Below are positions 54,001-57,000 of a stretch of DNA of 64,000 nt, piece after piece (the stretch's first letter is position 1; every line of letters starts with the position of its first letter). Made by a program: the position numbers. Origin of the DNA: Escherichia coli O157:H7. Lineage in GTDB: Bacteria > Pseudomonadota > Gammaproteobacteria > Enterobacterales > Enterobacteriaceae. The DNA lies in assembly GCF_013167455.1 (NCBI RefSeq), contig NZ_CP038328.1; one strand, 5' to 3'.

Positions 54001-57000
54001 CGCACACTCTCGCAGAGGAGTCTCCCTGTCTGGCTGCGGTCTCTGTTAATGCAGGAATACGGTGACGATACGGCGCATCAGCAAAACTTAGTTCAGGCAC
54101 TGAGTGCGGATATAGTCCTGTGCCCCTTCCAGCTGCTTCTGCATTGTCATCAACCGTTCTCTGAGGATGAAATAATCCCGTTCAGCGGTGTCTGCCAGTC
54201 GGGGGCCGGTTGCATTATCCACGCCGGAGGTGCCGGTGGCTTCACGCACGGTACCGGAGCAGGTGGCGTTGATCCGCAGGCGCTTACGACCAGCGGCAAC
54301 ATCAGCACGCAGAGTTTCATTTTCAGCTCTCGCATCGGCTAACTCCCTCGAGTATTTTGCATCGAGCGCAGCAACATCACGCTGGCGCACCTGCATGTCA
54401 GTAATGGTGGCATTCGCCTGTTCCAGCTCTCTGGCTTTTTTATCGCGCTGCGCTTTGTAGGTGAGCGCGTTGTCACGGTAATGGTTTGTTGCCAGCCACA
54501 GCGCACCATAGCCAACCGCCAGGACAATAATCACCACACACAGAACACGGTTCATCTCTCTTTCACCCCACCAGTCCCGATAACGTCAGGACTCGCCAGG
54601 CGGTGGAAAAGAAAATGGCAACCAGCATGACTAAAAATGAAATGCCGACAAGTACACAGAGGCTCTTCACCAGCGTTATGAGTTTATCTGATATCATTAG
54701 CCACCCCATCAATCCGCCTTTGTTATTTTCCCTTTGCCTGTATCAGCCAGGACAAAATCAATCAGCATATTCGCTTCATTTACCAGCGTACGGATTTTTG
54801 ATACATGCGCGGCTTTAACCTGTTTCCACTCATTCAGCCCGGTAGCAAACACACTGGCAATGTTTTTATCCCGTTTCATGTCAGCACAAGCCTGGTTGAG
54901 TTCTTCCATCACGCTCATTTTACGGGGATTAACGACAAAACCCTTCGTCCAGTACTCGTAAAGAACATCGTCGCACTCTTCCTGATACCGGATGACCTTA
55001 TCGCGGATTTCGGGTTTTACTTTGTTGGGATTAATGGTTTGTAGCCAGCCGGCAAGTTTTCGAAGTGGCATGGACACCATATTGCGTTGTTTCCCATCCT
55101 CAGCAACCATAACGATTTCCGTTATAGTTGACGCAAAACGCTGTCTTAACTTAGCCAACTGTGATTGCCAGGCCAGCCCCATCCCCGCAACGACAGGTTT
55201 CATGGGAACGTATGGTTCGCCATTATGGTTAACTACATAAAGAGAGTTGCCGTGAAACGGCACGGCCATCATATTCATCGGTTATTTCCTTTTAGTGATG
55301 AACCTTGTCTCACAGGAATCCAGCCCACAGAAAGGCACCGACAGCCAAACCGGTATCCTCAAGGGTCATCCTGAAAGGTTCTGTGTTGTGAGATGCGCGT
55401 GAGATGCGCAGAAATGACAAAGGCATCATTACGGTGCCTGAGTGTTAAACAACTGTTTTGACTTTATTCACTTACATTTTGCCAATTTGCAGGATTTCGT
55501 GTTATCCGTCCATGTAAGCAAACCTCATTTTTCAGCAAAATATTCTTCTTATCTGTCGATTCCCCAGCACGCCAGCGCGCTCTCCTGGTCACGACGGGAT
55601 ACCTGACCGTAACAGTTGTTTGAACGAATACGGCAGTCTCTGCCACCGTCCTTAATCCACCAGCGAATAGCTTCGCAGGCACCTTTTCGATCACCTGCAT
55701 TAATTCGTCTGTAAAACGTCGACGGGAAACACTTACCGGGACCAATGTTGTACGGACAGAATGACGCGATCCCCGCTTTCTGGGGTTCGGTCAGCGGCAC
55801 TTTGATGTTTTTCTCCACCCATGCCAGCGCCTTATCACGCTCAATGGCGTTAACCCGGTCGCATTTTTCCTTCGACAGCTTCATGCCAGGAATAACAGGC
55901 TTACCATCCACCCGGGTGGCTCCACGGCAGATGGTCCAGATACCCGCACCATCACGGTATGCTGTGGTGTGGTTACCTTCCTTTTCATCCAGAAACTGGT
56001 CGAGGATTTCAGGCGCAGAAGCACCTGCGGCAATCAGCGCCAGAACGGCAGCCGATAAACCATAGCGGAGTTTCCTGCTCATCAGCTTACTCTCCCCGTG
56101 CCGCCTTACGCCGGTCTTCTTTAATCTTGAAATACAGGTTCGTCAGATATGTCAGCAGCCCAAACAGCAGACTCCCCAGCACGCCTATTGCCGCCCACTG
56201 AGACGGGGAAACCCTGTCCAGCAACTGCAGGAACCAGTAGCCCGTTCCCACCGCTGACGTGGTGTATGACACACCTGTTGTGATTTTTTCCATCTGGTAC
56301 ATACCCCGTCTCCCGCAATCCGGAAGCTCACAACAATAAAAAAGACCACCGGCACACACCGATGGTCCCTGACGCATGCTTACATCATCATGTCGCTGTC
56401 CGGTGTGGGGTCACCGCTATCTGAAGCACTCCCCTCACCCGCGATGCCTTCCGGCTCCGGAGCTGCCGGTGCGCCCAGCAGCTCATCCAGAATGGCATCA
56501 ACCTCTGCATCAAGACGCGCTTCCAGGTTATGGCGAAGTTTCTGTTTCAGTGCGCTCCGGACTTCTTCAGAGCGCAGGACTTCCTTCACTGCTTCAGCAG
56601 TGACCAGGGATGTAATTTCTGACATGGGATTTTCTCGTCGAAAGGTGTGATTAAGAAAGTTGCCGCTAAATGAGCGGCTCTTCGGGTTTGCTTCCGGCTG
56701 ACTGACTGGCGCTGATTTTCTCAGCGGCCCTTTTGTCAATCTGTCTGCGCCAGAAGTCACGCATGGCCCGGTATCCACCCGAAAGGAGATACAGCACACA
56801 GACCACCGTACAGAAGTACAGCATTAACTGGTTCAGAAATGTCATAATTTCTTTCCGTTATTGTTGACAATAAGAACTGTTTTCATTTAAAAAACCAGAG
56901 CACGAAAGTATCGTTCCTTTATTTTTTCTCCATAGGTATTACCACCGCCAGCGTCCATTCCTGTCGCTGGCGGTTTTTTTATCATGCCGCAGTGTCTGTG

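Follow-up and report, generated by a model that had tools for sequence, protein, structure and literature searches.

Which lysis mechanism is used by a prophage of Escherichia coli O157:H7 whose tail genes are lambda-like? We examined this question in a stretch of 64,000 nucleotides (nt) from assembly GCF_013167455.1 (contig NZ_CP038328.1), hereafter the window, whose minus strand carries a holin gene S (56087..56302) and an endolysin gene R (55549..56082). A sequence-only reading had proposed that S is a pinholin with two start codons and that R is an endolysin with a signal-anchor-release (SAR) domain, so that the pair would belong to the phage 21 type and not to the lambda S/R type. Our analysis agrees with this pairing. 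Membership of S in PF04971, its similarity to phage 21-type S, the export segment of R, the identity of both proteins with those of phage 933W, and the published literature all point in this direction, and we estimate a probability of about 85% that a pinholin/SAR-endolysin system works here as in phage 21.

The S and R proteins were 100% identical to their counterparts in phage 933W (GenBank AF125520; S, AAD25449; R, AAD25450), and the DNA of the 3-kb region was 99.9% identical to VT1-Sakai and VT2-Sakai. Of 5426 complete E. coli genomes, 4254 contain a match to the S-R stretch (55400-56450), and a single genome can hold as many as 17 copies. As these are the 933W genes, the pinholin/SAR finding is already known: S proteins of phages encoding Shiga toxin (Stx) 2a have been assigned to the P21-family pinholins (PMC10462455), and 99% of Stx phages carry a predicted SAR endolysin together with a pinholin (PMC8136144; for the pinholin class also PMC10462455). 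The lysis cassette is thus an ordinary, already described one of the 933W/Sp15-type lambdoid prophages of E. coli O157, and its re-identification matters little, as it is present in thousands of E. coli genomes. Only two features go beyond the textbook picture, both of modest interest: the charge-free extension between the two starts of S, and the signal-peptide-like shortness of the N-terminal segment of R.

S matched the family PF04971 (Bacteriophage P21 holin S) over residues 5-67, scoring 112.8 bits where the cut-off is 26 (E = 7.2e-33), and also matched PHROG holin families, while the NCBIfam search with S returned no model naming a holin. It showed 77.5% identity to phage 21-type S, represented by the copy in phage SfI, and both proteins have 71 residues. 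Two transmembrane domains (TMDs) could be placed on S. TMD1 (residues 7-25; 56228..56284, minus strand) is weakly hydrophobic and SAR-like, with a summed Hessa apparent free energy of insertion (dGapp) of +6.18 kcal/mol and Gly, Ala, Ser or Thr at 11 of 19 positions, and the phage 21-type copy gave +6.44 and 12 of 19. TMD2 (residues 36-58; 56129..56197, minus strand), which corresponds to the hole-lining helix in S21, is more hydrophobic than TMD1 (dGapp +2.63) and is followed by a basic C-terminal tail. The two-segment layout read from dGapp, a weak TMD1 and a more stable TMD2, therefore has values near those of phage 21-type S. TMD2 contains G40xxxS44xxxG48 together with T51, T54 and N55, and all six residues are identical in phage 21-type S; this helix-packing motif and the polar face of TMD2 were reportedly defined by Pang et al. 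in 2009. The weak TMD1 and these residues of TMD2 are what the pinholin model is built on. According to this model, TMD1 exits the bilayer and TMD2 forms the wall of a small heptameric channel (PMC9636201; bioRxiv 10.1101/2021.04.20.440580; bioRxiv 10.1101/2024.01.23.576932). By analogy with phage 21 and from the literature, S would form nanometre-scale pinholes that depolarise the membrane without passing the endolysin. The S family is narrow. A search with S across 1.84 billion representative proteins gave 161 matches, many of them fragments or frameshifted, which belonged to Enterobacterales and their phages, and there was no unexpected relative among them.

The coordinates of S and its two in-frame ATG codons at 56302 and 56293, which had been proposed before, were confirmed by reading the minus strand. 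The first ATG occupies 56302-56300 and the second 56293-56291 (...GCGGGAGACGGGGT ATG TAC CAG ATG GAA AAA ATC...), and the TAA stop lies at 56089-56087. The long form (56087..56302, 71 codons plus stop) begins with Met-Tyr-Gln-Met and belongs, as a class II pinholin with two TMDs, to the phage 21 S family; the short form (56087..56293, minus strand, 68 codons) begins at Met4 with MEKITTG and is the presumed effector pinholin, a role taken from S21-68 of phage 21. A purine-rich Shine-Dalgarno sequence, GGGAG (56314-56310), is found 7 nt 5' of the first ATG, and a second purine run, GGGG (56307-56304), is found 10 nt 5' of the second one. Mechanical calling of open reading frames (ORFs) moves the start to an ATG at 56377 and gives 96 codons, the form which is also present in RefSeq NC_000902 (VT2-Sakai). 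We rejected this form as an over-extended start: its extension is interrupted by in-frame stop codons in 933W and Evi, and likewise in 63 of the 79 close relatives with enough upstream sequence, and its extra codons (56303-56377) are both arms of a terminator-like hairpin. The 71-codon (216-nt) start is used by the NCBI annotation pipeline PGAP, which labels the identical 216 nt "class II holin family protein", by the original 933W record and by the VT1-Sakai record. From the stops in relatives, the overlap with the hairpin and these choices of start, we consider the 71-codon coordinates right, which has practical value against the 96 codons of NC_000902.

The R gene has 177 codons plus stop on the minus strand, and its ATG at 56082 lies 4 nt past the stop of S. 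The protein begins with MSRKLRYGLSAAVLALIAAGASAPEILDQFLDEKEG and is a T4-type muramidase with an N-terminal SAR-type segment; it matched the phage lysozyme family PF00959 (E = 6.4e-25), and NCBIfam gave only a sub-threshold match to a gene transfer agent (GTA) endolysin. The catalytic triad E35-x8-D44-x5-T50 (55933..55980, minus strand; gaa 55980-55978, gat 55953-55951, acc 55935-55933) corresponds to the E-x8-D-x5-T motif defined in PMC9239132, and in the alignment of R sequences E35 and D44 were invariant and T50 was conserved in at least 90%. Among proteins of solved structure, those nearest to it in sequence include full-length R21 (3HDE, 1e-17) and DLP12 RrrD (4ZPU).

What kind of export segment R carries is more difficult to say. 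The proposed SAR domain comprises residues 1-24 (MSRKLRYGLSAAVLALIAAGASAP; 56011..56082, minus strand). In the N-terminus, MSRKLRYGLSAAVLALIAAGASAPE, a basic n-region with R3, K4 and R6 is followed by 18 residues (Y7-P24) without charged or strongly polar side chains. This segment had been described as weakly hydrophobic and Gly/Ala-rich; it is weakly hydrophobic indeed, but residues 7-24 include 7 Ala and 3 Leu against 2 Gly, so that the segment is rich in Ala and Leu and not in Gly. In its 15-residue core, 10 of 15 residues are Gly, Ala, Ser or Thr. The segment also contains two AxA motifs, A19-G20-A21 and A21-S22-A23, and Pro24 directly follows the second. The sequence-only reading had further taken the N-terminus as non-cleavable, and this part did not hold as a reading of the sequence, since the core is as short as those of classical signal peptides and carries the two AxA motifs. 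For the same reasons the choice between a SAR domain and a signal peptide is not legible by eye.

R might then have an ordinary cleavable Sec signal peptide that is processed by signal peptidase I and leaves a soluble periplasmic lysozyme, with the pinholin still acting as the trigger. The activity of R would in that case be restrained otherwise than by tethering, for example by a depolarisation dependence such as that proposed for some secreted endolysins of Gram-positive phages. Several observations weigh for this explanation and against a SAR domain. The uncharged stretch of R has 18 residues, compared with 20-23 in the validated SAR domains of R21, phi80 R and P1 Lyz and 15-18 in the signal peptides of OmpA, PhoA, MalE, DsbA and PelB, and its best 15-residue core (LSAAVLALIAAGASA) resembles OmpA, DsbA and MalE. 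The best 19-residue window of R has a dGapp of 4.1, which is within the range of the same five signal peptides (2.4-8.1) and above that of the three SAR proteins (0.5-0.8). Both AxA motifs are as far from the start as a cleavage site should be, and A19-G20-A21|S22 conforms to the -3,-1 rule. Since signal peptidase I does not cut before a Pro at +1, Pro24 would block the second AxA site but not the one at residues 19-21. The lysozyme domain also looks complete without residues 1-23, since residues 24-35 (PEILDQFLDEKE) supply the helix preceding the catalytic Glu, as in T4 lysozyme.

On the other side, the core of the segment (residues 9-23) is as conserved as the body of the enzyme (0.85 vs 0.86), while residues 1-8 reach only 0.34 among the 31 subfamily sequences compared, which are 75-95% identical overall. 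Pro is found at +1 or -2 of the AxA motif in nearly all variants of the R family (ASAP, APAP, APAS, APAT, ATAP). In the AlphaFold2 model of R, the mean predicted local distance difference test (pLDDT) is 90 and residues 11-30 are at 95-97. The model superposes over its whole length on active full-length R21 (3HDE) and RrrD (4ZPU), with 181 columns and a template modelling (TM) score of 0.73, and it fits truncated inactive R21 (3HDF) more poorly (TM 0.53). This agreement has to be discounted to some degree, because the model may lean on R21 structures in the training set and on R21-type rows of the alignment. The identical protein has also been treated as a SAR endolysin in published experiments of the Young laboratory: the plasmid list of PMC9239132 contains "pZE12-933W-R, phage 933W SAR endolysin", SAR endolysins alone rounded a small fraction of the cells, and significantly more cells became spherical with the Mu releasin gp25. 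Few rounded cells with 933W R alone and more with the releasin are as expected for a tethered enzyme and not for a freely secreted active one; the same paper calls pinholin-mediated release "the definitive test" of a SAR endolysin. Conservation, the AlphaFold model and published use thus favour a SAR domain at the N-terminus of R, and we regard the cleavable signal peptide as unlikely. By analogy with phage 21 and from the literature, R would be inactive while tethered and would be released in dependence on the proton-motive force.

The same pairing is found outside the closest relatives. In all eight diverged loci that we compared, down to phi80 at 51% identity, a dual-start S homologue was accompanied by a lysozyme that carries a hydrophobic segment at its N-terminus and is R21-type (165 residues) or 933W/Qin-type (177 residues), in line with the published pairing in Stx phages (PMC8136144). 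The lysozyme gene came directly after S in six of the eight and one or two small ORFs further on in the other two. A gene for an Rz-type spanin followed in each of these loci, and an embedded Rz1 was also present in the window, 933W and phi80. In the window, the i-spanin gene Rz lies at 54088..54555 (minus strand; PF03245, 4.9e-50), and the gene of the o-spanin lipoprotein Rz1, with 61 codons as in the 933W annotation, lies inside Rz in another frame (54150..54335, minus strand; PF06085, 1.7e-21).

The prophage agrees with lambda in its gene order, S-R-Rz/Rz1, and in its structural genes, and S could on this ground be regarded as a canonical large-hole holin through which R crosses the membrane by the lambda S/R mechanism. 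But S has two hydrophobic segments and not three, and it matches the P21 class II family rather than a lambda S family, while R, a T4-type lysozyme, brings its own export segment and is not a cytoplasmic transglycosylase of the lambda R type. We therefore consider a lambda-type mechanism extremely improbable. The lambda holin S107/S105 shares with S of the window two in-frame starts a few codons apart and an RNA hairpin near the Shine-Dalgarno sequence, which in the window is a predicted one; it differs in being a class I holin with three TMDs and large holes whose long form adds Lys2, whereas S of the window is class II and has an uncharged extension.

If the pinholin/SAR-endolysin system works as in phage 21, lysis would proceed in the following way. 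Q-type antitermination would let late transcription pass the hairpin upstream of S, and S, R, the ant-like gene described below and Rz/Rz1 would be expressed. Sec would export R by means of its basic, weakly hydrophobic N-terminus, and inactive R would accumulate tethered to the inner membrane on its periplasmic side. The two starts of S would give products of 71 and 68 residues, each with two transmembrane segments; TMD1 would leave the bilayer, the TMD2 helices would form "pinholes", and the proton-motive force would collapse. Depolarisation would free the N-terminus of R, the segment would fold onto the lysozyme body, and the active enzyme would degrade the cell wall. Rz/Rz1 would then disrupt the outer membrane.

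Comparison with known systems shows where S and R of the window are similar to them and where they differ. S21 of phage 21 (S21-68/S21-71) is like S of the window in Pfam family, length, starts at codons 1 and 4, weak TMD1, and the motif and polar face of TMD2, but it has the extension MKS where the window has MYQ. R21 (3HDE, 3HDF) shares with R the fold, the catalytic triad, a Cys-free N-terminal segment and, for 3HDE, the whole-length match. The identity between the two proteins is about 34%, and the hydrophobic segment has 23 uncharged residues in R21. Where R21 has a Gly/Pro-rich linker, the catalytic Glu of R is preceded by a regular amphipathic helix, ILDQFLDEKE. R also has an insertion of 10-13 residues and four more Cys residues (C109, C118, C150, C157), which are invariant among lysozymes of the 933W/Qin-type subfamily, whereas the R21 type lacks them. 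The C150-C157 segment varies in length among these lysozymes (CRIRSNNC vs CRLTKGQKNGC), which suggests that two disulfide-closed loops are formed in the periplasm.

The other known lysozymes are less close to R. The cryptic DLP12 prophage of K-12 encodes the pair EssD/RrrD, with MKSM or MKFM variants of S and an R21-like RrrD; it belongs to the R21 subtype and not to the 933W/Qin subtype of R in the window, and its copies are those of a cryptic prophage. One source names homologues of R "membrane-associated lysozyme; Qin prophage", and the 933W record notes a similarity of R to Qin R. P1 Lyz and Lyz103 of Erwinia phage ERA103 are, like R, T4-type lysozymes with an N-terminal SAR-type segment, and P1 Lyz (1XJT) was a weaker structural match to the model of R. 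Both enzymes are said, by Xu et al. in 2005 and Kuty et al. in 2010, to need a Cys in the SAR segment. All eight Cys residues of R are in the body and none is in residues 1-24, so R stands outside this disulfide-isomerisation subclass.

Do the two starts of S also make a holin and an antiholin? The arrangement had been called typical of holin/antiholin pairs, and the two conserved starts support this, but the long form adds no basic residue (MYQ vs MKS). Both Met codons of the Met-x-x-Met motif were kept in about 100 of the 120 closest protein clusters, and also in S of phi80 and of a Klebsiella phage at 51-55% identity. Relatives at 50-64% identity keep both as MKIM, MITM, MQLM or MTDM, and some relatives at 35-53% identity have a shorter M-x-M (MTM, MNM, MKM). 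Judged from these comparisons, the Met-x-x-Met arrangement is not due to chance. The residues between the two Met codons are variable. Lys or Arg is present there in about 55 of the 120 closest clusters (MKSM, MKFM, MYRM, MLRM, MMKM, MHRM), and about 44 have a dipeptide without either (MYQM, MDQM, MNQM, MFQM, MHQM). A scan of viral contigs with the S protein gave 80 loci, but these were 99-100% identical, with ATGTACCAGATG invariant, and were thus uninformative on diversity; in most of them the upstream extension of the S frame is closed, and they supplied variants of the terminator-like hairpin. In a near-identical prophage of O157:H7 strain MB9-1, the sole coding difference in S is at codon 2, Tyr2 to Asn (MNQM). 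Codon 2 (56299) is a hotspot of variation, other close alleles being MDQM, MFQM and MHQM, and both ATGs are fixed.

The antiholin character of both S21-71 and lambda S107 is credited to an extra basic residue that hinders the exit of TMD1 (PMC9636201; PMC13056207; bioRxiv 10.1101/2024.01.23.576932). In the phage 21 type, the net N-terminal charge of the long and short products is +2 and +1, but in the window it is +1 for both, as Met-Tyr-Gln brings no basic residue. The layout with two starts is thus typical, yet the accepted determinant of inhibition is absent, and this weighs against an antiholin. It concerns the antiholin role of S and not its membership in the holin family. A search of the accessible literature found no paper on the dual start of 933W.

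Met-x-x-Met may therefore be kept for tuning of translation or expression, so that both products are equivalent pinholins and the 71-residue form is no antiholin. This would agree with the equal charges, with the explanation of antiholins by an extra basic residue in reviews, and with the many closest clusters whose dipeptide lacks Lys and Arg, including uncharged or acidic ones such as MYQM, MDQM, MNQM, MFQM and MHQM; the diverged MITM, MQLM and MTDM and the single Y2N difference in the MB9-1 prophage are in line with it too. Against it stands the retention of both Met codons down to 50-64% identity, and of M-x-M at 35-53%, which argues that making two products matters for the family. The three extra residues, including an interfacial Tyr, could also still slow the exit of TMD1, and in S21-68 mutants the timing of lysis depends very strongly on which residues stand at the N-terminus (bioRxiv 10.1101/2021.04.20.440580). 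Taken together, we think that the odds for the long product being a true antiholin are slightly better than even, and that equivalence of the two products has a somewhat lower than even probability.

Two RNA hairpins precede S on the minus strand. The smaller one (56310..56326), CUUCCG-GAUUG-CGGGAG with 6 bp, has the Shine-Dalgarno sequence of Met1 as its 3' arm, and its stem was predicted by folding with a pairing probability of at least 0.9. A hairpin containing the Shine-Dalgarno sequence was predicted in all eight diverged loci with differing stem sequences, and a stem-loop overlapping the Shine-Dalgarno sequence has reportedly been described for S21 by Barenboim et al. in 1999. The hairpin in the window is a possible counterpart of the S21 stem-loop, and its reading as a conserved translational control is tentative. 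In the control, 107 of 300 shuffles of the 5' flank matched the pairing of the window hairpin, which is not significant, and significance was reached only for SfI, 1H12 and the Klebsiella phage. RNA folding of the whole region around the S start was likewise not significant (Z-scores -0.9 to +0.1).

The larger, terminator-like hairpin (56331..56370) lies between the DUF826 gene and S, directly 5' of S and inside the late operon. It has a 13-bp stem and a 4-nt loop, and the T-run after the stem reads TTTTTTATTG. The structure was kept in 11 distinct variants from relatives, in which 12 pairs were found, five of them with compensatory double changes. In 933W the hairpin differs in sequence from the window copy with the structure kept, and the phi80 record has an annotated terminator at the same relative place. 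Unless the RNA polymerase is Q-modified, such a hairpin would shield the lysis genes from transcription that starts further upstream.

The cassette is split between R and Rz (54709-55548), as in 933W, by the ant-like gene and a 270-bp non-coding gap. The ant-like gene (54709..55278, minus strand) is antirepressor-like by Pfam, with the domains P22_AR_N and ORF11CD3, and the 933W record speculates that it regulates lysis. In EDL933, PGAP calls a 48-codon ORF between ant and Rz.

Upstream of S there are a DUF826 gene, a DUF1378 gene and a gene of the nanS-p type (56982-58928), which encodes a SASA-family esterase of 648 residues. The lambda-like tail genes that had been pointed out were indeed found (J, the tape measure H, and L), together with a lambda-family portal and gpA terminase. 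No stx genes were found in the prophage of the window, including 58929-59628 between the Q-type gene (DUF1133, 59629-60291) and nanS-p. 933W, VT1-Sakai/Sp15 and VT2-Sakai/Sp5 have the same S and R genes, and 933W also has the same start region, the order S-R-ant-Rz/Rz1 and the upstream nanS-p/DUF1378/DUF826 block. Unlike 933W, the prophage of the window lacks stx between the Q-type gene and nanS-p and has another upstream regulatory region (DUF1133-type Q, hokD/sok). The late regulatory region with the DUF1133/Q-type gene is 100% identical to that of the MB9-1 prophage. The prophage of the window is thus an stx-less sibling that shares its late region, the lysis and nanS-p block at 99.9% identity, with Stx1 and Stx2 phages.

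Several RNA genes were recognised by Rfam in this part of the prophage. These were the small RNA STnc100 (59138-59330, minus strand, 150 bits), the anti-GcvB small RNA AgvB (59076-59137, plus strand, 96 bits), and a tRNA-like match at 59417-59476 (minus strand, 37 bits, model positions 7-64). ARAGORN called no tRNA at 59417-59476, while PGAP calls tRNA-Met in the identical DNA of MB9-1, and the element may be a degenerate or unusual phage tRNA. The sok antitoxin RNA (61767-61942, 120 bits) adjoins a hokD-type toxin gene in the early/nin region of the prophage.

The 933W-type allele and many of its relatives (MYQM, MDQM, MNQM, MITM, MQLM, MTDM) might have kept the dual start, with the basic residue that defines an antiholin lost or never present. 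Either the length of the extension or its aromatic anchor would then suffice to delay the exit of TMD1, or the products would be equivalent and the dual start would serve another purpose. Separately, R of the 933W/Qin type may define a third way to keep a tethered SAR lysozyme inactive, as its SAR core is short, the helix before the catalytic Glu is intact and four invariant Cys residues are added. We offer these two ideas jointly as a speculation that is rather doubtful as a whole. If it is true, MKSM, MYRM, MYQM, MNQM and MDQM would be a natural series of lysis-timing alleles, with possible consequences for when Shiga toxin is released. In any case, the label "antiholin" should not be carried automatically from phage 21 to the S allele of Stx phages. 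The timing of lysis sets when Shiga toxin and phage get out of the cell, and this bears on the variation at codons 2-3 of S.

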